A stretch of DNA of 64,000 nt from Lama glama (lineage: Eukaryota), in the NCBI GenBank assembly GCA_028534125.1, contig JAPYYK010000409.1, positions 1 to 64,000 on the forward strand. The letters are read 5' to 3'. Below are positions 3,891 through 47,200 of the stretch, piece by piece. The notes beneath the pieces were generated by a model that was not told the origin of the DNA, searched no databases, and saw only the letters and a list, made by a program, of their open reading frames with translations. Within the stretch, counting starts at the first letter, position 1, and each line of letters begins with the position of its first letter. The position numbers and the translations under genes were made by a program.

Positions 3891-3899
3891 TGGAGCAGC

Positions 3900-12167: not shown

Positions 12168-12173
12168 TTTATT
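12168..12173 (-). terminator. Polyadenylation signal AATAAA of left FLNA copy
   Basis: tttatt on + strand, about 280 nt beyond the stop codon; mirror of 63091-63096. Confidence 0.85.
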
Positions 12174-12452
12174 CCTCTTGGCTAGGGAAGAGAACTAGCG
12201 GGTGGTTGTGCACAGGACCCCCACCCCTCACCCCTCCCAGAACCAAAGAAGATAGGCAGGGCCACCAGAGGGCTCCCTCTGCTCGCCTCTCTCCTTTGCT
12301 GGAGTGGAGGCAGGTGAGTGCAGCACAGGGCAGGGTCGGCTGCAGTGACAGGGTAGCCAGGGCTCCAGGGCTGAGGTGGGGTTGCTGCTCGGGTGGCAGA
12401 GGGTGGGCGCAGGGGCACTTCTCATCCTGGGAGCTGCTGGCTGGCACAGAGC

Positions 12453-24400: not shown

Positions 24401-27400
24401 CGAGAAAGGGTGAGGGTAAGTCTAGAGAAGATGAGGTGGCCCCCCAAAACCCAATTACCTTGCTAGGTTTGGTGGGGGGCACAGCTTCCAGAGGAAAGGG
24501 GCTGCCGGGCACAGGGACACCGTCGTAGGTCACCTCTACCTCATAGGGCCCCTCCTCACGGGGCACAAAACGCACCACACTGTTGTCAGCCCCCAGGCCT
24601 GGCTCCACCTTGCAGGGTACTGCTGCCCCAGAGGGGCCCACGATCTTGGAGGCCACTTTGCCTTGGCCACCAGCACCCTTCGTCTTAACTGTGAACTCCT
24701 GGTCTTTGCCAACATCCACCTCTGTTGAGATGATGAAAAGAGGGAGAGAACCGTGCCGCCCTACCCAGGCAGCCCCAGGGCATGTTCTCAGTGACTGTGA
24801 CCAGGAACACAACTACTTACTCTCTCCCAGGCCGGACACCTTGATCTTGCTCAGGTCCAGGCTTGGAGACACCGCCACTGAGAAGGGGCTCTTGGGGATA
24901 GGGTCCCCTCCATAAGTGAGATTGATGCCCACTGGGCCCTGGGAGGGGTACAGAAGGCAGAGTCATGGGTCATGATTTTGGTCTCCCTGGCCCATGGCTT
25001 CCGAAATTGGGCATGGGGAGGGGACATCAGAGAAACACTGGCTTTGCTCTCCCACTGCCCCCCAGACTCCCATGCCCACTCCCTCCCAGGTAGGAAACAA
25101 GAGTGTGTGGGAAGGCCCCTAGAGCTGCCCACCAAGCCCACCAAGCGAGGAGGCCCAAAGGCTCAGCAGGTGTGGTGGAAGGTGCAGCGACAGGGGGCCG
25201 GGTGGCTACCTGCTGCACGGGAGTGTACTTGACAGTGTAGGTATTGTCATGATGGTCAATGATGTCCACATCACGCACCGCGTCCCCCTTGGCCAGCCCG
25301 GAGAACTGGACATCCAGCTTGCCTTTGCCAGCAGCTTTGGCATTGACCGTGAAGTGGGTAGGTTTGCCAAGCTCAACACCTGAGGAGACACAGTGAGAGA
25401 CCCTGTAGGGGTACCTTGGGTCTTGCCCCGCGACCTCCCCACACGGTACTCGTCCTCACCAGTGCGACTGAGACCAGGGCCCTCGGCCTTCACCTTGCTG
25501 GCATCATGGGAGGGCTCCACCTTGACACGGATGGGGCTGGTGGGCGTGGCCTGCAGTGGGTGGAAGGGGAAAGACTGAGAGGGGAGCAGCACCCCAACAC
25601 CCAGCAGAGTGAGGGACCGGGAGCAGCAGCACCCACCTGGTCAGCAAAGAGGACCATGATGGTGTAGCTGCCAGCCCCACGGGGTGTATACTTGACTGTG
25701 AAAGTGTCATTGTCATTGCGGATGATGTCAAAGTCAATATCGGCCTCGGTGGGGCCCACTACGCCAGGGGCGCACTTGATGCCAATGCTGACGTCGCCTG
25801 TAGTGGGGGAGGGGGTGGAGGCTGGGACTCACAGAGATGCCTTGCCCACTCGCCTACCCACTCTTGAGGCGGGGCCTTACCCTGGCCGGCCTCCGTGCAG
25901 TCCACAGTGAAGTAGGTGGGCTCGTGAGCCTTGAGCCCCGTCTTGGCCACTCCTGGACCGTACACCTTGACCTTGTTTGGGTGGCTGCCTGCTCCCACGT
26001 TCACCTGCAGGGCGTGGGGCAAGCGCAGGGGCATGACCAGCCTGCAGGAGCCACTGGGGCTTTTTCACCCACCATCAGGAGGCAAGCAAAATGGTGCAAC
26101 CACCTCAGGAAGTCATCTGGTGGTTCCTCAAACGATTACACATAAAGTGAGTACATACTGCTGCAATTCCACTCAGATGTGAAATCTGTCCACCCAGAAA
26201 AACAAGATCACTCATCCACACAAACACTTGTACTTGAACGTTCACAGCGGCACTGTTCACAACAGCCAAAAGGTGAGAAAATCCCAAATGTCCATCAACA
26301 AATGACCAGATAAGTAAAACATGGTCTCTCCATACAACGGAGTGCTAGTCAGCCATAAAAAGGCAGAAGCACAAAAGGGGATGCTGAGTGAAAGCAGCCA
26401 GGAACAGAAGGCCACCTCCTATAGGAAAGCAGATGAGGGGTTGCTGAGGGCTGGGCGGGGGTGAGGGGTGAGGTGCTAGCGGGTGGAGGAGTTTCTCTTA
26501 GGAATGGCGAAAACGTCTTCCTCTTTGATGTGGTGATGGCTGCGCAACTCTGAACTTACTCAAAACTACCGAGGTGTACATTCAAGAGGGGTCAGCTGTA
26601 GGCTATTCAAGTTTTATCGAACAGAGCTGGATGAGAACAAAGCAGGCACCCTAGGGAAGCAGGCTCCAGGCCAGTTCGAGGCCCACAGAGGGCAGGCTCA
26701 CCCGGAAGGGGCTGTTGGGGATGCTGACGCCGCCCCAAGACACCATGGCCGTGTGCTTCACAGGCTTCCGGGGCACATAAGAGCAGCTGTAAGTGCCATT
26801 GCCGTGGTCCTTGACTGATGCCTCCACAGGGCAGCCCTCATTGTCCTGGAAGGCAGGCGTAGTAGGTGGCCTCCTAGTCAGTACCCAGGCCTGGGCACCT
26901 GCCCACCCCACCCCCATGAGTGGGCACCTGACCTGCACTTGGACCCTGAGAGGAGCCTTCCCACCGTGCTTGGCATCCACCGTGAACTCCGCCGGCTTGT
27001 TGACAGCCACACCTGTCTTCTCCAATCCGGGCCCACGTGCCTTCACCTAATGGGAGGCCACCCAGATCTCAGGAGACCAAGTGCAGGCCCCCGTAGACAG
27101 AGTGGCAGGAGCACACCACCGGGGATACCAGCCCAGGCTTCCTGCCCCCAGCCCAGCCCCTACGCAGAGGTAGAAGGAGGTCAGAGACCTGGGCCAGCGG
27201 CACATGCCCTTTACCCTGTCTGGATGGAAATCCTGGGGGGCTTCGCGGATGTCTGCCATGAAGGGGCTCAGGCGGATATCTTCACTGTTGCACAGCACGT
27301 GCACAGCATACTCGCCAGCCTCCTGGGGCCAGTAGCGCACGTCACAGGAGCCATCGCCCTTGTCATCACATTCGATCTTGGCCTGTGATGGGCCCTCCAC

Positions 27401-30400
27401 CGAGAAGCCTGACAACAGCCACCAGCTCCATCAGTGTCCCAGAGCCTTGGAAGGGTGGCCCTCGCCACCCTCTGCCCCCCAGGCACCCACATTGCAGCCT
27501 CCAACTCACCCAGGGTGCCTACATCGTCCCCGATGGCTTCTACCACAAAGTCGGCTGACTTGCCAACGACGCCTCCCTCCAGCCCAGGGCCCCAGGCCCG
27601 CACCTTCTGATTGCCACACTCAGTGCCCACCTTCACCTCGAAGGGGCTGCGAGGAGAGAGCCACATCAGGAAGGGCTGAGGGACCCCGTCTTGGACAGCA
27701 GCCTGCCCGAAACCCACAGGGGAGAAGAGCACCACCTCTGAGCGCTCTGCCCACAGCCTCACCTGCGCCCGATGTTCTGGCCTCCCCACGTGATGGTGAC
27801 GATGTACGTGCCAGGGACCACGGGATAATACTCGAAGCCATAGACGCCGTCCCCCAGGTCCTTCTGTTTCACACGCTCCTCGCCCTCTGCCAGAGACGAG
27901 GAAGGGCCTCAGGCCTGGCCGGCAGTGGCCTGGGGCCAGCACTGCCCACCCCAGCTGCAGGTCAACTTACTGGGACCCTTCACAGTGACCTTCAGCTCCC
28001 CACTGCCCGCGCCCTTCGTGTAGACCTTGAAGTCAGCAGTCTCCTTCACCCGCACGCCCTTGGGTTGGAGGCCCCGGCCGACAGCACGGCAGGCACCTGG
28101 GTTACAAGCTGTGAGCAGAGAGCCAGCTGAGCTGCTGGGAGCTGGAGCTAGGCAACCCTTCCCTTGCCTCCCACGTGGCTGGACCATCAGGCCACAGAGG
28201 GTGGGGAAGGATGCGCAAGAAAGAACCAGAACGGACTGTGACCCTAAGACCTGTGGCCAAGGCCAGGACATGTCAGGCCTCCTCCCACCTGCTCCATCTG
28301 CATCTGTCCCCCACCTCCAGCCCAGCCCTCCCCTCCCAGAGGAAGACAGATCCAAGTACCGTTGACCCTGCGGGCAGAGCAGAGAGCAGCAGGTTTCTAG
28401 ACAACTGGAGCGAGCTCTTCCGAAGATGAAAGCGTGGAGAGAGAGAGAGAGATGGAGACGGGCAAGAGGTGGAAGAGGAGGAGGGGCCCCAGAAGGGGAA
28501 TAGAGAGAGAGTACATCGCCCAGACAGTGGAAGCACAGACAACCCAGGGAGATGGGGCAGGGGCTGGATGGAGAGGGACCTGCCCCGGCTGCCTCCCTCC
28601 CAAGGGAGGCCTGGGCTGCAATGGCCCAGCATGTGACAGCCAGGACTGGCCTACCTTGGCCAACAGTGACAGTGTAGGGGCTGCGAGGGATGGGCACGCC
28701 AGCGAAGGTGACGTGCACCGTGTGGACACCCTCCATGGTGGGCTGGTAACTGCAGCGATACGTGCTGTCGCCCCGGGCCTCCAGCTGAGGCACCACAGTA
28801 CCCTTCTGTCCAGCAGGGTCCTGGATCACGACCTCCACCTCACCCGTGCCAGCGCCTACCGTAAGGTACCATCTCAGCTCCCAGAGCCTCCAGGCCCCAG
28901 TGGCCCCACCCCCAGACCTTGCAGCCTCAGTACCCTCCCCTCACCTGCCGTGAAGATCTCAAAGTAGGTGGTCTTGTTGGCGATGTTGCCGCTGGGCTCC
29001 AGGCCAGGGCCCTGGGCAGTCACTTTGCTGGCATCACCCTGGGACTTGTCCACGTACACCTCGAAGGGGCTCTTGGCGATGTGCTGGCCGGCAAAGAGCA
29101 CAGTGACCTGTTCGCAGGAGGGGCAGGACGTGAGGGCGGGGTGGGGCCCTACAGCAGCTGCCCTCGCCACCAGCTTCCCCTTGGCCTGAGGGCTCACCTT
29201 GTGAGTCCCCGTCACCTCGGGGACATACCAGACAGAGAAGGTACGGTTCTTGTCATTATTGGCGGTCACCTTGGCCTAAGGTGGAAAGGAGCCCGTGAGC
29301 TCTGGCTGAGAGTGGCCCCTGCCAGCGAAGGCACAGTGGCACCTGCCCCACATGCCGTCGGCCCTACCTCCTCCTGGTGTCCAGCCGGGTCCTCCACGTA
29401 CACCAGCACCTCTCCCTGGCCAGCGCTTCTAGTCTCCACAGTGAACTCTGCCCGCTTCTTCACCATGTTGCCTGTGGGCTCGATGCCTGCCGGGGGAGGG
29501 CGCGAAAGGCCCGCGCAGGCTGTGAGCGCCGCCCCCTCCCCAGCGCAGCCCCAGCAGGCACGCTCTGTGCACGCGAGTCAGTTCAGCTTAAACCCCAGCG
29601 CACAGAGCCTTAGGTCCCAGCTGCACTCCTGCCGTGGGACAGGCCTGGGCCCGTTTTCTGGAACGTGCCCCAGTGTTTGCCTGGGCCCTCACTCCTGTAT
29701 GACGCCCTGGGCTGGGTTTCATCTCCACCGCAGTAAGGCGGACGGGTCCTTCCTCCCTCAACCCACTCCTGCCTGACTCTCGGGGGCATTTAATAACCTT
29801 GCTGCCACGTGACTCAAGACTCATCTTTAGAGAGGACACTGACCCGCAGGGAGGAGGGCGTCGCCCAGGAGCACCCACTGCTGCCTGGCTCCCTCACCTG
29901 GCCCGTAGGCTCGGGCTTTCTTCGGGTTCAGTTTGGGCCGCAGGGGAGCCCCTGGTTTCAGCTTGGCCTTGGGGAACTGGGATAGGTAGGTCATGACGGA
30001 GTGCTCATCCACATTGGGGTCCACGATCTCCTCAGGAGTGATCACCTGCCATGGGCAGAAGACAGGGGCCATTTAGCCTCTAGTCTCAGGTTCCTGGGGC
30101 GTGCCACCACCCCCCACCGGGATCTCGGCCCCTGGATGGCCCCAAGTGGTCAAGCAGGGGTGTACCTGAGGGATGCCCAGCCAGTCATCGGCCTGCTGCA
30201 TGGCTTCCCGTGCATTGTTCACAGGCTTGCTGGCGTCCCAGGAGTCCCAGTCAGGACACAGGCCTGAGGCACGAGGAAGGTGGTGAGTCGGGGGCCCACA
30301 GAACTTCCTGGTGGGCCATCCGGTCTGCCCCAGCACGCCCACGCCCCTCACCTGGGGCACAGCTGTCCACCAGGGCGCCCAGGGCCCTGCCGCTCTGCCA

Positions 30401-33400
30401 GTCCCGGCTGAAGTTTGTGATGGGCAGCTGTGGCAGCTTGTTCTGGATCCATCCCAGAAGCCTCTGCTTGGGTGTCTGTTTCTTGGCCTCCTCATCCTCC
30501 TCTTCGTCCCACATGGGCATGGAGATGGAGTAGTGTAGGATCAGGGTCCAGATAAGGCCCAAGATCAGCTTCAGGTTCCCGTCCACGATGGCCTTGCTGT
30601 CTGTGAGGGAAAGGAGTGGCAGCGCTGGGCAGGCAGGGGCCTCCGTGGGCGTCCTGTGCACATGTGTACATGCACACACAGGGTGGCAGGCCACTCCCAG
30701 GCACTGCTGTGTGGAGCACAGCGGGCCCCAGGGAGGAGAGAGAGGCCCTCGCAGGGTGGGGTGGGGCCCTCTCTGCCCAGGGCCCCTGCAAGGGCGTGAA
30801 GCAGGTTCGAAGGGAAAACACCCATGGGCAAATGGTGATGATACAGTACAGTGAGGGGGTGATGCCAGAAGCCGAGGCTGTGGGGCCCTAGAGGAAGGAC
30901 ATGCGACAGAGCTTGGCTGCAGACAGGGCCAGGGGAGGTCTCTGGAGGAGTCCCCTTCCCCAAAGATGGTGGCTCTGGAGAGTGAGTCCGATGAGCACGC
31001 CACAGCTGCCCACACACGAGCCCACCACCCATCTCCAGGGGTCTCCAGAGAATGGGCAGGAGGAACAGCCAGGCCCCAGCAGGCCTCAATGCCAGAGCCC
31101 CTGACCTGGCGCTGAGGAAGGGGAAGGCAGGCTGGTGGGGCGGTTGGGAAATACAACTGCTGCCCCAGGGTGAGTGGGTGGACGGCATGGGGCAGGGAAA
31201 GCAGAGGTGTTGAGCAAGGACCCTTTGGGTGGAGGGTGCGAGACCCACCCCCCACCACTTCCTCAGTGCTCCCCCTCCCCCCAGAGCCCAGCTGGGAGTT
31301 GGGCAGCAGGCCTGGTGCAAGGGAGGGGCTGGGAGCCCCAAGGAACCAGTGGTTGGACTGCAGGGCCCTGACTCACTGGGGCCCAGCAGGGATAGCCTGC
31401 CAGCCAGGATGATGGGCAGGACACATTCCAGGGGCCCCTCACCCAGCCCGAGGAGGAGGAGGAGGAGGTGGGGGGAGCAAAGCCAGCGAGCCTGTGTTGG
31501 GCGCCCAGGGCTCAGCTCGGGAGCCTGGGTGGCAGAAGTCATGGGTGGGGTCCCCAAGTCCCGCTGCCTCAGCAGAGCGTGCTCGGCTGCTGCCTGTTCT
31601 CGCCACCTAACGGGCCACTGGGCTGAGAGCTGGTGGCCACCAAGCTCACCACAGGGGAAGTGGTTAGGGCGGGCACCCTGTACCCCATCACTATAGCAAC
31701 CTCTCTGTGCTCTAAGCCCCACCCAAGGCCCTTCTGGGTCTCAGCCTCCTCCTGAGATTGGGGGCTGGGGGTGGTGCTCCAAGAATGGGAGAGGGCAACT
31801 CATCTTTGAAATTCCTGCTGGCATGCTCCATCCTCTACCCCCAATAATCAGGAGAAAATACTTGTCGAGTGGGTCAACTTGGGAATGGGAAGAAGGGGAT
31901 GAGTGCCTCGGAAAGGTCCATCAATGCGGCAGCCTCTGAATCCAGCAGGCAGCACTTTGAGGACCAGCGCCATGCTACTCAAAGCATGTTCCTGGACTGG
32001 GGTTGCTCCTGGTCGCACACCACTACCTAATGCTGTCCCCCGATGGCAAGCAAGGGAGGGTGGAGAGAGGACTTCAGGCTAGGGGTGACTGGAAGGTTCA
32101 GAGAAGACCAAGAGCACAGGACCCGCTGGGGCCTCCCACCAGGCTCTCACCCCCAGGATCCTGAGTCTTGTACAGGAGACCTCAGGAGGCCTGAGGCCCA
32201 CTGTGACCCATGAGAGGACACACAAGGCCAAGCTCATCAGCCCTGGTAGGTTGGGCTGGGCCCTCCCCCTAGTCCAAAGGAGGCTGGCCGAGGCCCTCCC
32301 TGTCCACCTCACAAAAGAGAGAGGGAAGGACGGGGCCCCGGGTTGAGAGAATGACGGGCTGGATGGCCCCGCCCCATCCCACCCCCTTTCCCCAGCCCCC
32401 GGCCAGCCTGACCCCTCCCTCCCCTAATCACTGCTGCTTTCCAACATTTTTTTGCCTTATATGGCAAAGCTCTGGGAACTAGGCCTGCTCCAGCCAGCTC
32501 ACAAGAGGAGAAGAAGGGAAGGGGGAGGACGAGACCCCCCCCAGACAACTGGGGTGTGGCCCGCCTCCCCACATCCGGTTGCCCCCCCCAAGGCTCAGAG
32601 ATGACTCAGCTTGGCTAGACTGAGGCTGGGACTGGGGGGTGGGCCTCCTCGGCCTCAACGACGTGCATTCCAAAGAAAGTGGTGGGGCCCTTGAGACCTG
32701 CCCTGAGTGGTTGGGGGAACCTGAGTCTCCGTCCCTCACCTTCCCAGGCTCAGCATGGACCATGCCAGGGCCAAAGGGACATCTGGAAGGCCTCTGAAAA
32801 CAAACACCTCTTGCCCCTTCCCTCCCTGTTGCATAGCCCCCTCCCCAAGTCACCAGTTCTGGTGTCGGTCCCTGAGCAGTTCCCATCTTAAGAAGTGCCT
32901 GGGATGCAGTAGGTCTGGTCAGTTCCAGCCTCACTAGCCCAGTGACACGGACATCGGGCCGGCAGTGAGCCCAGCACATGCTGGAGTACCTTCCAACCAA
33001 CTCCTGCATTCTAGATGCAGGAAGGCAAGTCCTACATGGAAGAGTTTGGCCAGAAATCAACAGTAACTTGGTGTCTAAGTAGGCTACAAGCCAGCTCCCT
33101 TCACTAGCCAGCGCACAGACCCACCTTGTCTTTCAATAGCTATGGTTCTCTCTGGCCCCCTAGTTCTGAGGGGGAGATCTAAATTAAGGCCCCCTATCTT
33201 TAGCGGGGGTGGGGGGCCTAGATAATGGAACCCACAAGCTCCATCCCCTGTTTAGGAACCACAGGGGTGCCTGAAGGCCAGACTGCCCTCTCCAAACTGC
33301 TTTAGGGGGTGGAGAGCCCTGGCCTCCGCCTCGTTAGAGATGGGGCATTGGGCACAGGGCCAGAGCTTGGCCAGTGCCCGCCCCACTAGGCCCTCTCCCA

Positions 33401-34057
33401 CCGCGGCCGCAGCGGCGGGGGCGCGGCCTGTGGAGGATGTGAGCTCAGCCTGGGCGTGGGCCAGCCGGGACAGGCGGGCGGGGCGCCTAGCGGTCCGCAC
33501 GCACCGCTGGCCAGCGAGCCTTTGTTCTCCAGGCCCACATGCATCTGGGCGGCCCCTGGAGCCTCTGGGTCAGCGCCGCATTTTAAGAGGGTGTCTGCCA
33601 GGGGTCAGCCCCCGGGAGATGGGAAGACGCACGGAGTCCCCCTCCCTCACCCTCCCCGCGCCACGGGGAGGCCCGCGCCCTCACCGATTGACACGAGCTT
33701 GATGCTCTCGCGGTCTAGGAACTCGAGCGCCACCGACACGTTCTCGAGCTGCATCTGGCGGAAGGNNNNNNNNNNNNNNNNNNNNNNNNNNNNNNNNNNN
33801 NNNNNNNNNNNNNNNNNNNNNNNNNNNNNNNNNNNNNNNNNNNNNNNNNNNNNNNNNNNNNNNNNNNNNNNNNNNNNNNNNNNNNNNNNNNNNNNNNNNN
33901 NNNNNNNNNNNNNNNNNNNNNNNNNNNNNNNNNNNNNNNNNNNNNNNNNNNNNNNNNNNNNNNNNNNNNNNNNNNNNNNNNNNNNNNNNNNNNCGGTACC
34001 GCTGCCCGGAGCCGCGCCCGCAGCGCTCTGGCCCGCCCGGGAGTGGGAGCTACTCAT
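12453..34057 (-). CDS. FLNA: Filamin A, left (minus-strand) copy; multi-exon, exons 2-48
   Basis: ATG at 34057 ([14 protein letters not shown]), stop (tca on +) at 12453-12455. Exon coordinates = 75264 minus those of the right copy (e.g. exon 2 CDS 33685-34057, exon 22 23645-24242, exon 48 CDS 12453-12640). CH domains and Ig-like filamin repeats with GT/AG junctions. No exon 1 in its own orientation. Confidence 0.95.
14681..14930 (-). other. A-to-I editing stem, left copy
   Basis: Mirror of 60334-60583. Confidence 0.75.
26085..26625 (+). mobile_element. L1 (L1MB-type) 3' fragment in FLNA intron 15, left copy
   Basis: cacttgtacttgaacgttcacagcggcactgttcacaacagccaaaagg...cccaaatgtccatcaacaaatga...agccataaaaagg. 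Confidence 0.8.
28360..28416 (-). other. Candidate poison (NMD) exon in FLNA intron 9, left copy
   Basis: Mirror of 46848-46904. Confidence 0.65.
32455..32671. promoter_or_regulatory. Intron 2 enhancer-like cluster: CArG, AP-1, TEAD (left copy)
   Basis: CCTTATATGG 32455-32464; mirror of 42593-42809. Confidence 0.6.
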
Positions 34058-34864
34058 TTTGAGGCGCGAGGAGCCGAGGGGCGGTGCTGCAGCCTAGGCG
34101 AGGGGACGGCCCTTTAATTAAAGTCGCAGGCACCTCAGCGAGCCCGGGACGATGCAGACAGCAGAGGTTGCGCTACGGAAAGAGCGAGCCCTTTAAATGC
34201 GGGCAGGGGGCGGGACAAGGAGGCGGAACTGCCATGAGGCGGGGCTGCGGGTGGGGCTTCGGGGCCGCACCCGCCCCGCCCCACCCCGCCCGTTGGAATG
34301 CCCCCCTGAGTCCCTCCGCCCCGGTGGTTTTGACCCGACCCCCAGGCTCCAGGAAGGGTCGTTGGGCCCCAAGTAGGCAAGATTGCGCCCAAGCCCTGCG
34401 GTCTCGCGCCTGCGCTGCAGGAAACGCTGCAACGAGGAAAGGCTGAGCTGTGTCTGGCGCTGGACCACCTGGCCTCCAGCGGGCACACCATACAAGGGAC
34501 TTTCCTTCCCCACGGCTCCTGCGGGGGATGGGGTGGCTCGCCCTCTGTGAGTGACGTAGGCTCCGCTCAGTCCCCCCGCAGCCCTCGCGGTCCCCCTTCC
34601 CCCGAGATCCAGCGCTTGGGGGTCCCTGGCCGCGCCCAAGCCGGTCGCTCGGCAGCAGCATGAAGGGGCCCGATCTTAAGGGCAAGCCCTTGGAGAGCGC
34701 GGGTCCGGGCGAGGCGCGGCTGCCAGCGCTGTGCGCGCGTGCGCCACGCCAGCGGAGCCCGTGGCGCCCGGACCCCAGGCCGCCCCCCAGACCCCTTGCC
34801 CCAGCTGGCCTGCCCGCTCTGCACTGCCCTGGGCTGTGCACCTGCGCCCGCCGGTCCCCACCGC
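34058..34864 (-). promoter_or_regulatory. CpG island / candidate alternative promoter upstream of FLNA exon 2 (left arm)
   Basis: Mirror of 40400-41206. Confidence 0.55.
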
Positions 34865-36565
34865 CTGCCTCCCTCCCAACCCGCTCCACCCAGGAGGAAA
34901 TGGGGCACTGGGCCAGGAGGCCACAGGCGATCCAGGAGCAAGCAGCCCTGAAAGGGGCAGGACGTGCCAATGGGCAGTGGCAGAGGCCGCAGGGTGATGC
35001 ATGCAGAGACAGCGAGTGTCCGTCTGACCCACCAGCAGTCCACCTGGGGCAGTAGGGGTTTCCTCTCCTGTCTGAATGGGCCCTGAACCCAGTGTGACCC
35101 AGGAGGTGGCCGGGCAGGGGTGGGGGGGTGTCTTCCAGACCCAGAGGGACCTGCGCAGTGGTTCCCTGAGGAACTGCTTGATGGGCTCTGTGCACCTGGG
35201 TCTGGGTGGGCTTCACTGTCACGTGGTGCAGAGGGGCCCCTGGGACACAGGGGCCAGGGGACTGAAGGGGGCAAACCACCAAGGCCTGCTGAGGAGTCTG
35301 GACAGTCACTAGGAGTTGGTGAGGACCTTGATCAGTGAAGAGCTGTCCCATGAAACTGCGAAGGAGGTGACAATCACATTCTAAACAAAGCTAGATGATG
35401 GAGTGTGGGGCCAACTGAAGTGCGCCTCCCAGACCTGGGAGCCTGGGGAGGGGAGGCCCCGTCCTGTCCTCGTAGATGACAGCTGGTAACAGAAGTGAGG
35501 AGGGCTCTGGTCAGATCCGGGCAGGTTGGCCCAGCTGGTGAGGGTCACTGTGGAGGTTTGTTCATGGGGTGAAGAAGATGTAACCATACAGTTAGTGGTG
35601 AGAAGATAGGGCCCTGATTTGACTACACAGAGCCTCAGAAAATTTGCCCAAAAGTTGCAGGGTTTTCGAGTAAAGGTGAGGCCTACCGTATCTCTGGAAG
35701 AGGACGAGGCGTGTGGGCCCCGAGACATGCAAGGCAGTACGAAAGTCGGGAGAGCCCTAGGCAGGCAGGGTCTTGCTGCTTATCTTTCAGAGCAGGAAGG
35801 GAGATGGTGTCAGGGCTCTGGGCTGCTCAGAGTCTGCCTCATGGAATTTTAAGTTTTGGCAAGATCCAATTCCCCAGCACCTCTCCAAGCCTTCTTCTGC
35901 AATGCTGGCCCCTGTCCCGGAGGCTGTCCTCCCCCATGCCACCCCTCCCCATACAGATCCAAGCTGTTTCCTTATGAGGTCAAAGAATTCTAAGTTTGCC
36001 TTCTCCCCTAGGAACACCCCGTCCCCCGGCACCTACCTTGCCACTCTGCCTTTTATCCCCTCCTCCTCCAGTCACCCCAGTATGAGGTCCCACCACCAGT
36101 GGCACCAGGAGCCTGACTTGTGATGGTCCCCTGTGCCCAAGCCCACCTGGAGACCAAGTCCAGGTGCACTGCAGGCAGACCCATCCCAGACCACCAGAAA
36201 GCAGGAGAGCCCTTGACTGTCAGAGCCCAGAGGCCCTTGGCACCACCCTTATCACGATCACATAGTCGAGTAATTAGGGGCCCAGAGAGGGAGGAGACTT
36301 GCGCAAGGGCCCCGAGTGCAGCGATTCATTCATGGATTGTTCCCCCAGTTGGTACCTAGTCCTGGGGTTATGATCTGGACAGTGTGGCCCAGAGAGGGTT
36401 CTGTGTCAGCAAATGGGCTATTGGGGGAAATCTGGGGCCTCAAGTGGAGTCTTCCTGGGAACAGGTGGGTAGAAAATTATAGGGAAAAATAATATCAACA
36501 AGAATACATTCCTCAACATTCAGGTCCAAGGAGACAATTGTTCATTGAGCTGTTAATGTTTTCTT

Positions 36566-36693
36566 TTTCTTTCTTCCTTTTTTTTGGGGGGGTAATTGGG
36601 TTTATTTATTTATTCTAATACAGGTACTGGGGATTGAACCCAGGACCTTGTGCATGCTAGGCATGCACTCTACCACCAAGCTATACCCTCCCC
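36566..36693 (-). mobile_element. tRNA-derived SINE, camelid Vic-1-like, with perfect 21-bp TSD
   Basis: Minus strand GGGGAGGGTATAGCTTGGTGGTAGAGTGCATGCCTAGCATGCACAAGGTCCTGGGTTCAATCCCCAGTACC plus (AAAT)n/C-run/A tail. TSD ttgagctgttaatgttttctt at 36545-36565 and 36696-36716. Confidence 0.9.
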
Positions 36694-37899
36694 TCTTGAG
36701 CTGTTAATGTTTTCTTAAAGATCAGAATCTTAATCCTTTGGTTCAATACAAAACTTAAGTTTTCTCTTCAAGGATGTTAAAAATCTTATAGGTTTTGCCT
36801 GGCAACAGAATGCTGTAAAACGTTGCTCAGATAGTAACAAAAGTCATAAGATGGTGAATATTGTGAAAATTAATGTGTAGGAGGTGGTCACAATTAATAT
36901 GTACCAGTGAGTGATTAGCTGACCAAAAGCCTCTCAAAGAACGCCTTGTGTTCCAAGCCTAGAAGACACCAGTTTACCTTGGGACTATATTGGCATGGCT
37001 AGTTGGAGATTCAGCTTGCCTTGATTCTAGTGGTTTTCAGGAACTTTCAACACAAGGAGGAAAGGTCTTTAATTTATTACGATCTTTACTAGAGAACAGC
37101 TGGTGTTTACAAACCTGCATTCCCTAGACCTGGAAGAAGTAGAGACCCAGAGATGCATGTGGGGAGCCTTGGCCAGGAGCTTTCTCCCTCCACCCTTTTT
37201 CTTTCTCTCCTTTAATGCAGTGGAATTGAATGGGAAATGTCAGAGTCCTTTTCAGGTAGCAAGGGAAAGGCTCATTTTGTGAACCACCTGTTTCAGTAAC
37301 TTGTGTCACCCTGTGTGTGTGCACACAAGTACTGGCTCAGGATGTACAGTGTAGTTCTTATTGGGGTTTGTGGGCAAAAGGTTTAAGACACTGCTTTATG
37401 TGGCCTTCCCCAAGAAAGTGATACTTGCATTGAATACGAAGCTACCAGGAAATAGGCGCATAGAAGAGGAAGAGGGAGCCTGGCAGTGCCAGGGTGTGGC
37501 TGTGCCCACCCAGTTCACAGACCCTTGGCTCTGTGGCTGCCCCACTACAACTGCCCACTCCTGGACTTAAGGACTGCACCTAACTGTGCTCCTGAGAATT
37601 CAGTCCGTCTCTGTTGCCCCCACCCAGGCTTGGCACCCAGTAGGGGCCAAATCAGTGGCAGTCAGGATGCTAGCTCATCCCGGGTTTCAGGTCCCTGGTC
37701 CATGGCAGATTTTTGGCCGTAGGCGCTCAGTGAACACCTGCAACGGCCCGTTGCCCACCTCCACCCCAGACGGCAGACTCCGACTTGCCTGGCCAGCCCA
37801 GGCTTGAGGCAAGGGAAGGGAGCCATGACTATGGGCCACCTGGAGGAGGTGGCCTTTCCTGCAACAGGGGCCCTGCAGACCCTCAGGGCTCTTGAGGAG

Positions 37900-38360
37900 A
37901 GCACCCCCCTCGCCAGTCGGTGAGCTCATAGGGCGGGGGGCGTCGCCAGGCGGCCGGGGCGCTGTAGCTCACGGCGCGCCCCCGCCCCCCCCCGCCCCCG
38001 CCCCCGGCTCNNNNNNNNNNNNNNNNNNNNNNNNNNNNNNNNNNNNNNNNNNNNNNNNNNNNNNNNNNNNNNNNNNNNNNNNNNNNNNNNNNNNNNNNNN
38101 NNNNNNNNNNNNNNNNNNNNNNNNNNNNNNNNNNNNNNNNNGACGCCAGTGGAGCCCCGAGGCGCCCGGTGCGGGCTCACAGGCAAGCCAGGCGCCACCC
38201 CGTGGTCGCCAGCCGTCCGCAGGACAGCAGGTGAGGCCTCCGCGGCCGGCTCCGAGCGGGATGGTCACGGAGCTGCTCGCAGACCGAGGGCGGGGGTGGC
38301 GAAGTCCGGCGGCGAATCCTGAGAACTCAGGCGCGGGCGCGCACCTAGGCCGGGGCCAGG
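37900..38360 (+). promoter_or_regulatory. FLNA: FLNA main CpG-island promoter and non-coding exon 1 (donor after 38230)
   Basis: Tandem GC boxes (cccgcccc) at 37979-38005, masked core 38011-38141, then CpG-rich sequence ending CAG|GTGAGG at 38230/38231, about 2.9 kb upstream of the exon 2 acceptor (ttccgtag|cgcaac, 41091/41092). Fits the known FLNA layout with a non-coding first exon. Confidence 0.75.
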
Positions 38361-39119
38361 TGCAGCTGGGGTGCCTTCCCTTGGGGCCGACTTACCTGGT
38401 TTACCTGAAAATCTGTGTGTGCCTGGGAGTGTGGGAGCCCTAAGTCATGGGGGTCCCTGACAGAGGGGGAGTCTGAGCGTTTGGCAGGACACAGGCTCTC
38501 CTGCGCGCCGGTGAGCTGGCCACTGCATGGCTATCTGGGAAGGAGGGGCCCAGAGAGCAGGACATTGTGTGGGCTGAGGGCGAGTGGCCACGTGGAAGGA
38601 CAATTCACAGCCAGTATGCTTCCTGGGAGGGCGACAGTGGGCTCCTCGCTGGCACCAGTCCTCTGGGTACCAACTGCTTTGGGCACAGGGAGTTGGCTGC
38701 CAGGCTGCTGTGCTCTGTGGGAGGTCAGGCAGGGGTGTGGCCCGCACAGGAAGCAGGGGCTCCTCCAAGAGGCCAGATTCCCAGGCTGGGTCCTGTCCCA
38801 GGTTGGCTCAGAGCTGGATGTTCACTGCCAGCCAAGATGCAAGCAGCAACATCCCCAGATTCCCATGCCACCTGGGTCCAGGAGAAGTAGGTGAAATCCG
38901 ATGGGAGAGCCACCAGTGTGTGCTCCAGGGTGCAAGTCAAGATGGGAACTCAGGACTTAAGTGCCCTCACCTGCCATCTGGACTTGCCTTAGTGGCCCAT
39001 CCTGCCATTCTTCGACTTTCTTCACCAGCTGAATCGCCCCTGTGGGAGGGCCTGGCCTGGGGTCTGAGGACTGGGGGTGGGGTGGGAGGCGGAGTGTATC
39101 TAACATCCAAGAATCTACT

Positions 39120-39129
39120 CCAAATAAGG
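39120..39129. promoter_or_regulatory. CArG box CCAAATAAGG (intron 1, spacer)
   Basis: Exact CC(A/T)6GG; FLNA is a known SRF/MRTF target. Confidence 0.6.
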
Positions 39130-39193
39130 GAAAATATGAAAGAGCTGGATTTTGGCTTCCAGGGACTGCTGGATCTGGGGGCTTTGGGATGGG

Positions 39194-39207
39194 GCGCCAT
39201 CTGGTGG
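39194..39207 (-). promoter_or_regulatory. CTCF-like motif CCACCAGATGGCGC
   Basis: Close match to the CTCF core CCASYAGRKGGCRS; binding not shown. Confidence 0.6.
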
Positions 39208-39811
39208 TGATACGACGTCCCCTAGGAACAAGAACCTTCTACACCCCCATCCTTTATCACCCCCAAATAGGGAAAACCTAGGGCTGGAAGCCAGGATGCA
39301 GATTCGGTCCCCTTTTCTGCTGCAGTTGGCTACTGGTCACTTACTCTGACTCAGTGTCCCTGCTCTCTGAAGATTAAGGAGTGAACACAGATGACCCAAT
39401 TGGATGGCACTTATAAAAGTGAAAATCAGTTCTCAGTGGAACTCTCTCCTTGGGAACTTGCTTTCCAGTGGGACAGAGGAAGCAGGACGAGTCTCATCTC
39501 CTCTTGAATGGGGCCTGGTAGGGAGAAGTCCCCCCTCTAAAGGTTTCCCTCCCACCTACACTCCAGATCCCAGACACCGTGGTGTGGAATTTTGTGCAGG
39601 TGTGTCTGAAAGTGGTCAGGAGAGGAGAGTGTACAGGTGAGCCTCAGACTGAAAAATGTCATTTGGAACCCCTACCACCACCATTGGTGAGGAAAAACCA
39701 GTGGGGTGACAGGCAGCCCCTAAGTGAGCATGCAGGAGGGCAGGGGAGACGCTGGCTGGGACTACAGCCCCACTGTGGGTGATGTAGACACTGCAGGTTG
39801 TGCGGCGTCAA

Positions 39812-39821
39812 CCATATTTGG
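39812..39821. promoter_or_regulatory. CArG box CCATATTTGG (intron 1, spacer)
   Basis: Exact CC(A/T)6GG. Confidence 0.6.
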
Positions 39822-40399
39822 GCATGACATGCCAGCTGACCCAGGGCCTCCTCTCCCACCGCTCTTTAGCAGATAATTTAGTTAATACTAGTCTGCAGCT
39901 CAATCTAAGAATCAAGCAGGAGGGGCAGAGACATGCTCCTCAGACACAGGCCACACTCCTCAGCAGGCCTTGGCAGCCGTCATGGTGGTTTACCCCTTTC
40001 AGTCCCCTGGCCCCTGTGTCCCAGGGGCCCCTCTGCACCACGTGACAGTGAAGCCCACCCAGACCCAGGTGCACAGAGCCCATCAAGCAGTTCCTCAGGG
40101 AACCACTGCGCAGGTCCCTCTGGGTCTGGAAGACACCCCCCCACCCCTGCCCGGCCACCTCCTGGGTCACACTGGGTTCAGGGCCCATTCAGACAGGAGA
40201 GGAAACCCCTACTGCCCCAGGTGGACTGCTGGTGGGTCAGACGGACACTCGCTGTCTCTGCATGCATCACCCTGCGGCCTCTGCCACTGCCCATTGGCAC
40301 GTCCTGCCCCTTTCAGGGCTGCTTGCTCCTGGATCGCCTGTGGCCTCCTGGCCCAGTGCCCCATTTCCTCCTGGGTGGAGCGGGTTGGGAGGGAGGCAG

Positions 40400-41206
40400 G
40401 CGGTGGGGACCGGCGGGCGCAGGTGCACAGCCCAGGGCAGTGCAGAGCGGGCAGGCCAGCTGGGGCAAGGGGTCTGGGGGGCGGCCTGGGGTCCGGGCGC
40501 CACGGGCTCCGCTGGCGTGGCGCACGCGCGCACAGCGCTGGCAGCCGCGCCTCGCCCGGACCCGCGCTCTCCAAGGGCTTGCCCTTAAGATCGGGCCCCT
40601 TCATGCTGCTGCCGAGCGACCGGCTTGGGCGCGGCCAGGGACCCCCAAGCGCTGGATCTCGGGGGAAGGGGGACCGCGAGGGCTGCGGGGGGACTGAGCG
40701 GAGCCTACGTCACTCACAGAGGGCGAGCCACCCCATCCCCCGCAGGAGCCGTGGGGAAGGAAAGTCCCTTGTATGGTGTGCCCGCTGGAGGCCAGGTGGT
40801 CCAGCGCCAGACACAGCTCAGCCTTTCCTCGTTGCAGCGTTTCCTGCAGCGCAGGCGCGAGACCGCAGGGCTTGGGCGCAATCTTGCCTACTTGGGGCCC
40901 AACGACCCTTCCTGGAGCCTGGGGGTCGGGTCAAAACCACCGGGGCGGAGGGACTCAGGGGGGCATTCCAACGGGCGGGGTGGGGCGGGGCGGGTGCGGC
41001 CCCGAAGCCCCACCCGCAGCCCCGCCTCATGGCAGTTCCGCCTCCTTGTCCCGCCCCCTGCCCGCATTTAAAGGGCTCGCTCTTTCCGTAGCGCAACCTC
41101 TGCTGTCTGCATCGTCCCGGGCTCGCTGAGGTGCCTGCGACTTTAATTAAAGGGCCGTCCCCTCGCCTAGGCTGCAGCACCGCCCCTCGGCTCCTCGCGC
41201 CTCAAA
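40400..41206 (+). promoter_or_regulatory. CpG island / candidate alternative promoter upstream of FLNA exon 2 (right arm)
   Basis: CpG-dense; CRE-like TACGTCA 40706-40712, MCAT CATTCC 40964-40969, GC-box/G-run cluster 40973-40994, TATA/CArG-like CATTTAAAGG 41065-41074. Confidence 0.55.
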
Positions 41207-44200
41207 ATGAGTAGCTCCCACTCCCGGGCGGGCCAGAGCGCTGCGGGCGCGGCTCCGGGCAGCGGTACCGNNNNNNNNNNNNNNNNNNNNNNNNNNNNNN
41301 NNNNNNNNNNNNNNNNNNNNNNNNNNNNNNNNNNNNNNNNNNNNNNNNNNNNNNNNNNNNNNNNNNNNNNNNNNNNNNNNNNNNNNNNNNNNNNNNNNNN
41401 NNNNNNNNNNNNNNNNNNNNNNNNNNNNNNNNNNNNNNNNNNNNNNNNNNNNNNNNNNNNNNNNNNNNNNNNNNNNNNNNNNNNNNNNNNNNNNNNNNCC
41501 TTCCGCCAGATGCAGCTCGAGAACGTGTCGGTGGCGCTCGAGTTCCTAGACCGCGAGAGCATCAAGCTCGTGTCAATCGGTGAGGGCGCGGGCCTCCCCG
41601 TGGCGCGGGGAGGGTGAGGGAGGGGGACTCCGTGCGTCTTCCCATCTCCCGGGGGCTGACCCCTGGCAGACACCCTCTTAAAATGCGGCGCTGACCCAGA
41701 GGCTCCAGGGGCCGCCCAGATGCATGTGGGCCTGGAGAACAAAGGCTCGCTGGCCAGCGGTGCGTGCGGACCGCTAGGCGCCCCGCCCGCCTGTCCCGGC
41801 TGGCCCACGCCCAGGCTGAGCTCACATCCTCCACAGGCCGCGCCCCCGCCGCTGCGGCCGCGGTGGGAGAGGGCCTAGTGGGGCGGGCACTGGCCAAGCT
41901 CTGGCCCTGTGCCCAATGCCCCATCTCTAACGAGGCGGAGGCCAGGGCTCTCCACCCCCTAAAGCAGTTTGGAGAGGGCAGTCTGGCCTTCAGGCACCCC
42001 TGTGGTTCCTAAACAGGGGATGGAGCTTGTGGGTTCCATTATCTAGGCCCCCCACCCCCGCTAAAGATAGGGGGCCTTAATTTAGATCTCCCCCTCAGAA
42101 CTAGGGGGCCAGAGAGAACCATAGCTATTGAAAGACAAGGTGGGTCTGTGCGCTGGCTAGTGAAGGGAGCTGGCTTGTAGCCTACTTAGACACCAAGTTA
42201 CTGTTGATTTCTGGCCAAACTCTTCCATGTAGGACTTGCCTTCCTGCATCTAGAATGCAGGAGTTGGTTGGAAGGTACTCCAGCATGTGCTGGGCTCACT
42301 GCCGGCCCGATGTCCGTGTCACTGGGCTAGTGAGGCTGGAACTGACCAGACCTACTGCATCCCAGGCACTTCTTAAGATGGGAACTGCTCAGGGACCGAC
42401 ACCAGAACTGGTGACTTGGGGAGGGGGCTATGCAACAGGGAGGGAAGGGGCAAGAGGTGTTTGTTTTCAGAGGCCTTCCAGATGTCCCTTTGGCCCTGGC
42501 ATGGTCCATGCTGAGCCTGGGAAGGTGAGGGACGGAGACTCAGGTTCCCCCAACCACTCAGGGCAGGTCTCAAGGGCCCCACCACTTTCTTTGGAATGCA
42601 CGTCGTTGAGGCCGAGGAGGCCCACCCCCCAGTCCCAGCCTCAGTCTAGCCAAGCTGAGTCATCTCTGAGCCTTGGGGGGGGCAACCGGATGTGGGGAGG
42701 CGGGCCACACCCCAGTTGTCTGGGGGGGGTCTCGTCCTCCCCCTTCCCTTCTTCTCCTCTTGTGAGCTGGCTGGAGCAGGCCTAGTTCCCAGAGCTTTGC
42801 CATATAAGGCAAAAAAATGTTGGAAAGCAGCAGTGATTAGGGGAGGGAGGGGTCAGGCTGGCCGGGGGCTGGGGAAAGGGGGTGGGATGGGGCGGGGCCA
42901 TCCAGCCCGTCATTCTCTCAACCCGGGGCCCCGTCCTTCCCTCTCTCTTTTGTGAGGTGGACAGGGAGGGCCTCGGCCAGCCTCCTTTGGACTAGGGGGA
43001 GGGCCCAGCCCAACCTACCAGGGCTGATGAGCTTGGCCTTGTGTGTCCTCTCATGGGTCACAGTGGGCCTCAGGCCTCCTGAGGTCTCCTGTACAAGACT
43101 CAGGATCCTGGGGGTGAGAGCCTGGTGGGAGGCCCCAGCGGGTCCTGTGCTCTTGGTCTTCTCTGAACCTTCCAGTCACCCCTAGCCTGAAGTCCTCTCT
43201 CCACCCTCCCTTGCTTGCCATCGGGGGACAGCATTAGGTAGTGGTGTGCGACCAGGAGCAACCCCAGTCCAGGAACATGCTTTGAGTAGCATGGCGCTGG
43301 TCCTCAAAGTGCTGCCTGCTGGATTCAGAGGCTGCCGCATTGATGGACCTTTCCGAGGCACTCATCCCCTTCTTCCCATTCCCAAGTTGACCCACTCGAC
43401 AAGTATTTTCTCCTGATTATTGGGGGTAGAGGATGGAGCATGCCAGCAGGAATTTCAAAGATGAGTTGCCCTCTCCCATTCTTGGAGCACCACCCCCAGC
43501 CCCCAATCTCAGGAGGAGGCTGAGACCCAGAAGGGCCTTGGGTGGGGCTTAGAGCACAGAGAGGTTGCTATAGTGATGGGGTACAGGGTGCCCGCCCTAA
43601 CCACTTCCCCTGTGGTGAGCTTGGTGGCCACCAGCTCTCAGCCCAGTGGCCCGTTAGGTGGCGAGAACAGGCAGCAGCCGAGCACGCTCTGCTGAGGCAG
43701 CGGGACTTGGGGACCCCACCCATGACTTCTGCCACCCAGGCTCCCGAGCTGAGCCCTGGGCGCCCAACACAGGCTCGCTGGCTTTGCTCCCCCCACCTCC
43801 TCCTCCTCCTCCTCGGGCTGGGTGAGGGGCCCCTGGAATGTGTCCTGCCCATCATCCTGGCTGGCAGGCTATCCCTGCTGGGCCCCAGTGAGTCAGGGCC
43901 CTGCAGTCCAACCACTGGTTCCTTGGGGCTCCCAGCCCCTCCCTTGCACCAGGCCTGCTGCCCAACTCCCAGCTGGGCTCTGGGGGGAGGGGGAGCACTG
44001 AGGAAGTGGTGGGGGGTGGGTCTCGCACCCTCCACCCAAAGGGTCCTTGCTCAACACCTCTGCTTTCCCTGCCCCATGCCGTCCACCCACTCACCCTGGG
44101 GCAGCAGTTGTATTTCCCAACCGCCCCACCAGCCTGCCTTCCCCTTCCTCAGCGCCAGGTCAGGGGCTCTGGCATTGAGGCCTGCTGGGGCCTGGCTGTT

Positions 44201-47200
44201 CCTCCTGCCCATTCTCTGGAGACCCCTGGAGATGGGTGGTGGGCTCGTGTGTGGGCAGCTGTGGCGTGCTCATCGGACTCACTCTCCAGAGCCACCATCT
44301 TTGGGGAAGGGGACTCCTCCAGAGACCTCCCCTGGCCCTGTCTGCAGCCAAGCTCTGTCGCATGTCCTTCCTCTAGGGCCCCACAGCCTCGGCTTCTGGC
44401 ATCACCCCCTCACTGTACTGTATCATCACCATTTGCCCATGGGTGTTTTCCCTTCGAACCTGCTTCACGCCCTTGCAGGGGCCCTGGGCAGAGAGGGCCC
44501 CACCCCACCCTGCGAGGGCCTCTCTCTCCTCCCTGGGGCCCGCTGTGCTCCACACAGCAGTGCCTGGGAGTGGCCTGCCACCCTGTGTGTGCATGTACAC
44601 ATGTGCACAGGACGCCCACGGAGGCCCCTGCCTGCCCAGCGCTGCCACTCCTTTCCCTCACAGACAGCAAGGCCATCGTGGACGGGAACCTGAAGCTGAT
44701 CTTGGGCCTTATCTGGACCCTGATCCTACACTACTCCATCTCCATGCCCATGTGGGACGAAGAGGAGGATGAGGAGGCCAAGAAACAGACACCCAAGCAG
44801 AGGCTTCTGGGATGGATCCAGAACAAGCTGCCACAGCTGCCCATCACAAACTTCAGCCGGGACTGGCAGAGCGGCAGGGCCCTGGGCGCCCTGGTGGACA
44901 GCTGTGCCCCAGGTGAGGGGCGTGGGCGTGCTGGGGCAGACCGGATGGCCCACCAGGAAGTTCTGTGGGCCCCCGACTCACCACCTTCCTCGTGCCTCAG
45001 GCCTGTGTCCTGACTGGGACTCCTGGGACGCCAGCAAGCCTGTGAACAATGCACGGGAAGCCATGCAGCAGGCCGATGACTGGCTGGGCATCCCTCAGGT
45101 ACACCCCTGCTTGACCACTTGGGGCCATCCAGGGGCCGAGATCCCGGTGGGGGGTGGTGGCACGCCCCAGGAACCTGAGACTAGAGGCTAAATGGCCCCT
45201 GTCTTCTGCCCATGGCAGGTGATCACTCCTGAGGAGATCGTGGACCCCAATGTGGATGAGCACTCCGTCATGACCTACCTATCCCAGTTCCCCAAGGCCA
45301 AGCTGAAACCAGGGGCTCCCCTGCGGCCCAAACTGAACCCGAAGAAAGCCCGAGCCTACGGGCCAGGTGAGGGAGCCAGGCAGCAGTGGGTGCTCCTGGG
45401 CGACGCCCTCCTCCCTGCGGGTCAGTGTCCTCTCTAAAGATGAGTCTTGAGTCACGTGGCAGCAAGGTTATTAAATGCCCCCGAGAGTCAGGCAGGAGTG
45501 GGTTGAGGGAGGAAGGACCCGTCCGCCTTACTGCGGTGGAGATGAAACCCAGCCCAGGGCGTCATACAGGAGTGAGGGCCCAGGCAAACACTGGGGCACG
45601 TTCCAGAAAACGGGCCCAGGCCTGTCCCACGGCAGGAGTGCAGCTGGGACCTAAGGCTCTGTGCGCTGGGGTTTAAGCTGAACTGACTCGCGTGCACAGA
45701 GCGTGCCTGCTGGGGCTGCGCTGGGGAGGGGGCGGCGCTCACAGCCTGCGCGGGCCTTTCGCGCCCTCCCCCGGCAGGCATCGAGCCCACAGGCAACATG
45801 GTGAAGAAGCGGGCAGAGTTCACTGTGGAGACTAGAAGCGCTGGCCAGGGAGAGGTGCTGGTGTACGTGGAGGACCCGGCTGGACACCAGGAGGAGGTAG
45901 GGCCGACGGCATGTGGGGCAGGTGCCACTGTGCCTTCGCTGGCAGGGGCCACTCTCAGCCAGAGCTCACGGGCTCCTTTCCACCTTAGGCCAAGGTGACC
46001 GCCAATAATGACAAGAACCGTACCTTCTCTGTCTGGTATGTCCCCGAGGTGACGGGGACTCACAAGGTGAGCCCTCAGGCCAAGGGGAAGCTGGTGGCGA
46101 GGGCAGCTGCTGTAGGGCCCCACCCCGCCCTCACGTCCTGCCCCTCCTGCGAACAGGTCACTGTGCTCTTTGCCGGCCAGCACATCGCCAAGAGCCCCTT
46201 CGAGGTGTACGTGGACAAGTCCCAGGGTGATGCCAGCAAAGTGACTGCCCAGGGCCCTGGCCTGGAGCCCAGCGGCAACATCGCCAACAAGACCACCTAC
46301 TTTGAGATCTTCACGGCAGGTGAGGGGAGGGTACTGAGGCTGCAAGGTCTGGGGGTGGGGCCACTGGGGCCTGGAGGCTCTGGGAGCTGAGATGGTACCT
46401 TACGGTAGGCGCTGGCACGGGTGAGGTGGAGGTCGTGATCCAGGACCCTGCTGGACAGAAGGGTACTGTGGTGCCTCAGCTGGAGGCCCGGGGCGACAGC
46501 ACGTATCGCTGCAGTTACCAGCCCACCATGGAGGGTGTCCACACGGTGCACGTCACCTTCGCTGGCGTGCCCATCCCTCGCAGCCCCTACACTGTCACTG
46601 TTGGCCAAGGTAGGCCAGTCCTGGCTGTCACATGCTGGGCCATTGCAGCCCAGGCCTCCCTTGGGAGGGAGGCAGCCGGGGCAGGTCCCTCTCCATCCAG
46701 CCCCTGCCCCATCTCCCTGGGTTGTCTGTGCTTCCACTGTCTGGGCGATGTACTCTCTCTCTATTCCCCTTCTGGGGCCCCTCCTCCTCTTCCACCTCTT
46801 GCCCGTCTCCATCTCTCTCTCTCTCTCCACGCTTTCATCTTCGGAAGAGCTCGCTCCAGTTGTCTAGAAACCTGCTGCTCTCTGCTCTGCCCGCAGGGTC
46901 AACGGTACTTGGATCTGTCTTCCTCTGGGAGGGGAGGGCTGGGCTGGAGGTGGGGGACAGATGCAGATGGAGCAGGTGGGAGGAGGCCTGACATGTCCTG
47001 GCCTTGGCCACAGGTCTTAGGGTCACAGTCCGTTCTGGTTCTTTCTTGCGCATCCTTCCCCACCCTCTGTGGCCTGATGGTCCAGCCACGTGGGAGGCAA
47101 GGGAAGGGTTGCCTAGCTCCAGCTCCCAGCAGCTCAGCTGGCTCTCTGCTCACAGCTTGTAACCCAGGTGCCTGCCGTGCTGTCGGCCGGGGCCTCCAAC

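Follow-up and report, generated by a model that had tools for sequence, protein, structure and literature searches.

An inverted duplication whose arms are identical over 24 kb raises the question of whether it belongs to the genome or to the assembly and, if it is real, how old it is and how its two halves have stayed alike. This question is posed by a stretch of 64,000 nucleotides from Lama glama (contig JAPYYK010000409.1, positions 1 to 64,000; hereafter the window), in which a left arm (11264..35266, minus strand) is mirrored by a right arm (39998..64000, plus strand) across 4,731 bp of spacer that include both eroded edges of the homology (35267..39997). The right arm leaves the window at 64000, and the left arm is given as far as its mirror is visible and may reach further left; positions 1-11263 have no mirror in view. 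The arms are inverted with 0 mismatches in the 23,219 non-N bases compared between 11264-35266 and 39998-64000. With an arm length of at least 24,003 bp, the structure exceeds the 8 kb by which a large X palindrome is recognized (PMC8327919); its arm-to-arm identity, which may be inflated by assembly consensus, lies above the corresponding 99%, and its spacer is unique, without extended self-homology past the edge, as in that class. The palindrome would be X-linked, judging from the X-linkage of FLNA in human.

The uniformity of the arms calls for caution. At a true identity of 99.95%, 99.97% or 99.99%, the probability of zero differences in 23,219 bp is 9e-6, 0.001 or 0.098, respectively, and part of the agreement may arise from the assembler using one consensus for both arms, so that arm identity is no measure of conversion. 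Ten runs of N (131-228 bp) are distributed across the arms, the spacer and the left flank, and eight of them occupy exact mirror positions in the arms; they thus look content-dependent rather than like assembly gaps, and arm differences inside them are invisible.

Each arm appears to hold the whole reading frame of FLNA, with start codon, stop codon and poly(A) signal. The right copy (41092..63096, plus strand) extends from an exon 2 acceptor at 41092 through an ATG at 41207 and a stop codon at 62809-62811 to a poly(A) signal at 63091, and the left copy (12168..34172, minus strand) is its mirror, with the acceptor at 34172, the ATG at 34057, the stop codon at 12453-12455 and the poly(A) signal at 12168. 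The best PDB match of 23583-24242 was Filamin-A (3rgh_A, E 1.5e-57), and the Pfam Filamin domain was found in the last exon; start, stop, poly(A) signal and exon 2 acceptor served as landmarks, and the exons were mapped in part. Within each arm, a direct similarity of 89 bp (79%) was also observed between 21941-22029 and 25457-25545 and between their mirrors, probably reflecting filamin repeat exons.

A single-copy CpG island in the spacer (37800..38500, plus strand; CpG observed/expected ratio 0.52-0.83) is likely the FLNA promoter together with the non-coding exon 1, judging by its position and by an apparent resemblance to the human FLNA 5' UTR. A donor scan pointed to a GT at 38231, which with the acceptor at 41092 would give an intron 1 of 2.86 kb. 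In human, according to the accessible part of PMC8719250, exon 1 of FLNA is non-coding and exons 2-48 contain the whole frame. Since exon 1 is single and lies on the plus strand, the right copy can be regarded as native and the left copy as starting inside intron 1. The left copy has no exon 1 in its own orientation and keeps the CpG island of distal intron 1 and exon 2, which is present in both arms (33400..34800, minus strand; mirror at about 40400-41900). It also lacks both perfect CArG boxes detected by motif scan as candidate elements, one in the single-copy part of intron 1 (39120..39129, plus strand) and the other about 115 bp inside the homology end (39812..39821, plus strand). An imperfect local hairpin in intron 1 (38932-38987; blastn E 2.5e-5, folding z -1.77, 7 of 200 shuffles as stable) is probably minor.

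The eroded edge is the only place where the two arms are distinguishable, and it therefore provides diagnostic primers or reads for the reality of the palindrome, its age and the orientation of its spacer. Perfect identity stops at 35266/39998 and gives way to three zones, the right-hand counterpart of which, in native intron 1, is 39936..39997 (plus strand). In zone 1 (35267..35281), 13 of 15 bases match 39983-39997, and the mismatches, at 35267/39997 and 35272/39992, are both transitions, with the alleles G/C on the left and A/T on the right. A 12-bp segment found only on the right (within 39971..39985, plus strand) has a 3-bp direct repeat at its flanks, and its placement slides by three bases (39974-39985 or 39971-39982, with the same trinucleotide on each side); we infer a slippage deletion, the direction suggested being a loss from the left copy. 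Zone 2 (35279..35297) is a 19-bp exact inverted match to 39955-39973, and zone 3 (35298..35315) matches 39936-39954 at 13 of 18 bases, with five mismatches and one 1-base gap. The first-pass annotation had listed the end of perfect identity, the two mismatches, the right-only 12 bp, an exact 16-mer and a patchier match to about 35315, and all of these were recovered in the arm alignment, the 16-mer as part of the 19-base match and the patchier match with its end at 35315/39936.

Comparison with shuffled sequence, which that annotation had proposed, placed the edge match far above chance. The extension anchored at the edge scored 27, a value reached by none of 5,000 dinucleotide shuffles (maximum 16) and none of 20,000 random position pairs (maximum 21), and under a second scoring scheme its score of 137 was reached by 0 of 5,000 shuffles and 2 of 20,000 random pairs. 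In 62 overlapping controls of equal length, exact inverted matches were at most 11-14 bp long, against 19 bp in zone 2, and no control attained the local score of 42 obtained at the edge. Zone 3 alone is weak, its score being reached by 73 and 244 of 5,000 shuffles, and by 1,991 and 4,872 of 20,000 random pairs (10-24%). Past 35315/39936, no further anchored extension was obtained (score 0-1); blastn with 7-base words detected no deeper homology layer in the spacer, and nhmmer on the spacer added only low-confidence columns to the same edge match.

Several other features of the edges were recorded. The right edge (39936-39975) holds a degenerate 20-bp tandem duplication that may add to the weak zone 3 match, no special secondary structure was found at either edge by folding (z 0.16 and 0.44), and 35300-35620 has what we take to be an L2-like look. 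A common derivation of the two edges from a single ancient repeat family was set aside, as an identity of 29/31 is too high and the similarity ends abruptly.

How far the duplicate extends into these zones determines where the junction is placed. It had been claimed that identity decays stepwise, that the junction lies about 50 bp inside the identical edge and that the edge has diverged substantially; taken in full, this would make all 49 bases a decayed duplicate, very old (14% divergence) and eroded step by step to a junction at 35315/39936. The best-scoring extension does end at that position, and zone 3 lies modestly above the shuffles given above, which keep the first mismatch. However, all five mismatches of zone 3 are transversions (p 0.004 under a 2:1 transition bias, 0.13 for random mismatches), its score is matched by 10-24% of random position pairs, and the mismatch density of the three zones (2/15, 0/16 and 5/18) is not monotonic; the comparison of 2/31 with 5/18 gave a Fisher p of 0.084, so that stepwise decay is not established, and we regard the claim in its full form as very unlikely. 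The impression of substantial divergence came from the zone 3 tail, and the firm part of the edge comprises 31 aligned bases with two differences (6.5%, 95% interval 0.8-21%) plus one indel. Because zone 3 is weak and its mismatches are exclusively transversions, it looks like a candidate microhomeology that may have seeded the founding template switch rather than like decayed duplicate, and the true junction is probably the inner end of zone 2 (35297/39955), 31 bases inside the identical edge. At 72% identity with a 1-nt gap (68% if the gap column is counted), zone 3 falls within the limits used for microhomeology junctions (70% or more across 5 bp or more, with no gap above 2 nt). The best reading of the edge is that a 31-bp stretch of duplicate has escaped conversion and that the adjoining 18 bp are the founding microhomeology. 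Two differences in 15 bp beside none in 23,219 bp (Fisher p 4e-7) imply that either the arms have been homogenised or the edge is older than the arms.

An independent protein record bears on this choice. The left junction is spanned by a spurious open frame, which was used to search a protein collection and had one match, P0001 (370 aa; 5 contigs, the longest of 3,376 bp), which represents the same intronic frame with two compensating frameshifts. It differs from the arm frame at 16 of 303 in-frame residues, corresponding to a DNA divergence of about 2.5% (range about 1.5-4%). At its N-terminus, this single record, available as protein only, agrees with the left copy at both zone 1 sites (C at codon 4, L at codon 6), for which chance convergence from the right codons has a probability of about 4e-4; its initial M falls on a codon that is ATG in the right copy and TTG in the left. 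A further search retrieved P0001 again and four matches at 38-51% identity; proteins spanning the left junction were found in none of 10 exact look-ups, among no short matches and among no 50% representatives.

Three readings of P0001 can be considered. It could be a left junction with a TTG start, or a right copy converted to left alleles, both of which need the palindrome in the P0001 lineage; or it may be a native single-copy locus with the ancestral bases, the right copy of the llama having mutated twice. Both changes run from A/T to G/C, the direction favoured by conversion in PMC3723533, which fits the second reading, and under the third a single branch must have been hit twice (p 0.016 in 15 bp, 0.058 in 31 bp). 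Whichever reading applies, the two substitutions stem neither from read errors nor from errors at the birth of the duplication.

This result weighs on two explanations that would make the palindrome recent or spurious. In the first, a recent duplication arose by error-prone replicative repair, with zone 3 priming the switch and the 12-bp deletion and both substitutions being polymerase errors in the first 31 new bases. The identical arms would be explained, the deletion is flanked by 3-bp microhomology, and small deletions or single-base changes near junctions occur in at least 10 PLP1 duplication cases according to the accessible text of PMC6902434; such errors should, however, be private to the left copy, whereas P0001, one record, shows the left residues at both sites (about 4e-4 by chance). 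We consider this origin highly improbable, and the mechanism can still account for the 12-bp deletion alone. In the second, intron 1 was fused to upstream sequence by a chimeric or fold-back read, which led the assembler through FLNA a second time; the base-identical arms would speak for this (P of 9e-6 and 0.001 at 99.95% and 99.97% true identity), as would the failure to detect EMD beside the FLNA promoter and to find a camelid FLNA duplication in the literature. A chimera copies its template, however, and would not supply two bases that match an independent, diverged lineage; the differences are not private to the assembly, as P0001 has the left residues, and a structured 31-bp zone with a microhomology-flanked indel would be untypical of read noise. 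An artefact thus seems very improbable, in agreement with the first-pass annotation, which had judged fold-back reads and haplotigs poor explanations. A mistaken joining of the standard to the inverted haplotype was also set aside, as the join appears to lie outside the large flanking repeats. The same annotation had proposed an old duplication with ongoing gene conversion: the old duplication agrees with the left residues of P0001 at 2 of 2 sites, and ongoing conversion is a deduction, not a direct observation. An old palindrome with conversion would fit P0001, its age and the conversion both being argued indirectly. Taken together, these points make it probable that the palindrome is real and that its age exceeds what the identity of its arms would suggest.

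If the edge is older than the arms, a two-step origin could be envisaged, in which an older short inverted copy of the intron-1 site lay upstream of exon 1 and recent recombination or a template switch built the 24-kb arms, so that the edge is old, the arms are young and ongoing conversion is unnecessary. The absence of differences in 23,219 bp is directly accounted for, P0001 fits as a native single-copy locus with an ATG start, and template switches favour pre-existing similarity (PMC6902434, accessible part). However, the native copy of this lineage must then have acquired both substitutions after the split from P0001 (p 0.016-0.058); similarity of such quality was seen in 0 of 62 control segments, so that one more, earlier duplication has to be postulated; and the spacer shows no deeper homology. 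On balance, a two-step origin appears rather unlikely.

The reading that we prefer, with a probability of about 60%, is a real inverted duplication of FLNA that was seeded at zone 3, has been kept identical by conversion, and whose edge retreated after the 12-bp deletion. A strand that had broken or stalled about 2.9 kb upstream of the exon 1 donor would have annealed to FLNA intron 1 through zone 3 (18 bp, 72%), and copying in inverted orientation would then have proceeded from intron 1 across the entire reading frame and past it. In mammals, FLNA-EMD is flanked by an ancestral inverted repeat, to which the new copy may have become connected; the arm would thereby have grown inward over the place that EMD occupies in human. 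Human EMD deletions that carry an inverted partial copy of FLNA originate in this manner (PMC8719250). Gene conversion between the arms would have kept them identical since then. A 12-bp slippage deletion near the junction, presumably in this order, would have left 16-19 bp of homology inside it, too little for conversion tracts, which would stall there, so that the innermost 31 bp drift and the two transitions persist; with these 31 bp outside conversion, the identical edge would have retreated outward. This would leave two identical FLNA bodies and, between them, a 4.7-kb spacer that could flip and that contains the only exon 1 and promoter; a crossover between the arms would flip the spacer and aim exon 1 at the other copy, leaving the protein unchanged.

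In favour of this history, zones 1 and 2 lie far above chance, the 19-bp exact match exceeds all 62 controls (maximum 14), and a duplication postdating the P0001 split would need two hits on one branch (p 0.016 for 15 bp or 0.058 for 31 bp). Against it, conversion is deduced from one sequence whose arms carry no variants, the interval that 2/31 gives for the age (0.8-21%) extends to values more recent than the P0001 split, and zone 2 has no mismatch although it is expected to be the oldest part. P0001 starts with M at the ATG of the right copy (TTG on the left) and may therefore be a single-copy native locus. Zero arm differences would also be the extreme of the palindromes described in the accessible part of PMC8327919 (up to 99.99%), and zone 3, at 18 bp, exceeds the microhomeologies of 7-14 bp given in that of PMC6902434.

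The boundary itself is an ordinary type of scar, and it is the position of FLNA inside the arms that is unusual. What stands out, more than the boundary, and deserves pursuit is the combination of a doubled FLNA frame, a single exon 1 shared by both copies and the lack of a visible EMD. In human, EMD lies head-to-head with FLNA. In the present window, emerin or its LEM domain had no match in any of 93 left-spacer frames of at least 22 aa, and the spacer upstream of the FLNA promoter (35316-37800) contained neither an emerin-like frame nor a CpG island. Likewise, scans for EMD or any other gene in the left flank and spacer gave only Filamin above the curated cut-off in three overlapping sets of 90, 72 and 93 frames, the first of which consisted of 78 frames from 1-12,900 (mostly the longer of 181) and 12 spacer frames. 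The absence of emerin thus refers to the scanned frames, not to the genome, and short exon pieces or sequence in N-runs could escape such a scan.

Some further elements were noted in the flank and spacer. A CpG-rich promoter-like region lies at about 3900-4800, with a donor-like site on the plus strand at 4329, and 72 frames near it gave no Pfam match above the cut-off. An Rfam scan of 1-41,500 disclosed two tRNA-like SINE heads and nothing else. One belongs to a tRNA-derived SINE on the minus strand at 36545-36716 (Rfam tRNA match 36619-36690), bounded by a perfect 21-bp target-site duplication (36545-36565 and 36696-36716), and its presence or absence across species could help to date the spacer; a second copy of the same family, about 75-77% identical, occurs at 2429-2559. 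A tRNA-derived SINE would be in keeping with a camelid origin.

As to expression, the duplicated CpG island may provide the left copy with an internal promoter. This copy need not be silent, since in human one of the three FLNA start sites uses a downstream ATG (PMC9838097, accessible part). Donor-like sites on the minus strand at 37972 and 38395, in or beside the shared CpG island, face the left FLNA copy and are candidates for a reverse-strand first exon. More tentatively, and as a scenario that we hold possible rather than probable, a whole mammalian lineage, presumably the camelids, may for millions of years have had two complete FLNA frames synchronised by conversion, the palindrome having grown inward over the emerin position and EMD having been displaced or lost. 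The single exon 1, in an invertible spacer together with its CArG-bearing intron, would then serve whichever copy it faces; expression of the other copy would start at the duplicated CpG island or at a first exon on the reverse strand (38395 or 37972), which would change FLNA dose or the ratio of long to short isoforms. If real and lineage-wide, the locus would have a doubled, broadly expressed disease gene and a displaced EMD neighbour, in departure from the FLNA-EMD layout reported for human and 15 other mammals, and it would provide a clean case for how the edge of a palindrome arm advances and retreats. Loss of emerin in people leads to Emery-Dreifuss dystrophy.

Searches of mostly open-access literature found no prior description of a camelid FLNA duplication, and the accessible parts of PMC13688818, PMC6598621 and PMC5615350 contain nothing on an FLNA palindrome locus. 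Known palindromes nevertheless provide several points of comparison, each taken from the accessible part of its source. The human X chromosome has 26 palindromes, with arms up to 99.99% identical and spacers from 77 bp to 358 kb, and rearrangements of X palindromes concentrate at spacers and inner arms (PMC8327919). The llama structure resembles mammalian X palindromes in its arms longer than 8 kb, its identity above 99%, its unique spacer within the reported size range and its protein-coding arm gene. Unlike in human, where arm gene families are mostly testis-biased (18 of 30; PMC8327919), the gene involved here is the broadly expressed FLNA, and it is split over arm and spacer, with a likely single exon 1 and a doubled reading frame.

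The same gene is concerned in human P24 (HsInv0389), in which 11.3-kb repeats lie outside and FLNA and EMD are single in the spacer (PMC8327919, PMC3961182); recurrent inversion is driven by inverted repeats on either side of FLNA-EMD, which occur in human and in 15 other mammals according to the same two sources, where Caceres et al. 2007 is cited. The present locus differs from this arrangement, since the FLNA frame is found in both arms, the spacer is 4.7 kb long and no LEM/emerin match was detected in it. With regard to homogenisation, conversion in the Y palindrome P6 proceeds by tracts averaging at least 2 kb and is biased to G/C and to the ancestral state (PMC3723533). The mechanism would be similar here, with G/C alleles on the left and A/T on the right, but conversion in P6 was demonstrated with variants across 378 chromosomes, whereas the arms of the llama are variant-free. 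Similarly, zone 3 resembles the microhomeology junctions of PMC6902434 in its 72% identity and 1-bp gap at the inferred switch point, and differs from those fresh patient junctions (7-14 bp) in that the adjacent substitutions are common to another lineage.

Further parallels come from rearrangements of human FLNA itself. An extra FLNA copy has been described within an inverted triplication (PMC11293582), and a human EMD deletion is accompanied by a partial inverted duplication of FLNA, comprising exons 29-48, with a 5-bp microhomology (PMC8719250). In that deletion, as would be the case in the llama, a second, 5'-truncated FLNA copy replaces EMD, a short microhomology marks the junction and one breakpoint lies in FLNA intron 1. 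Unlike that rare disease allele with its clean overlap, the llama locus has the whole frame doubled and a junction that bears an indel and two substitutions.
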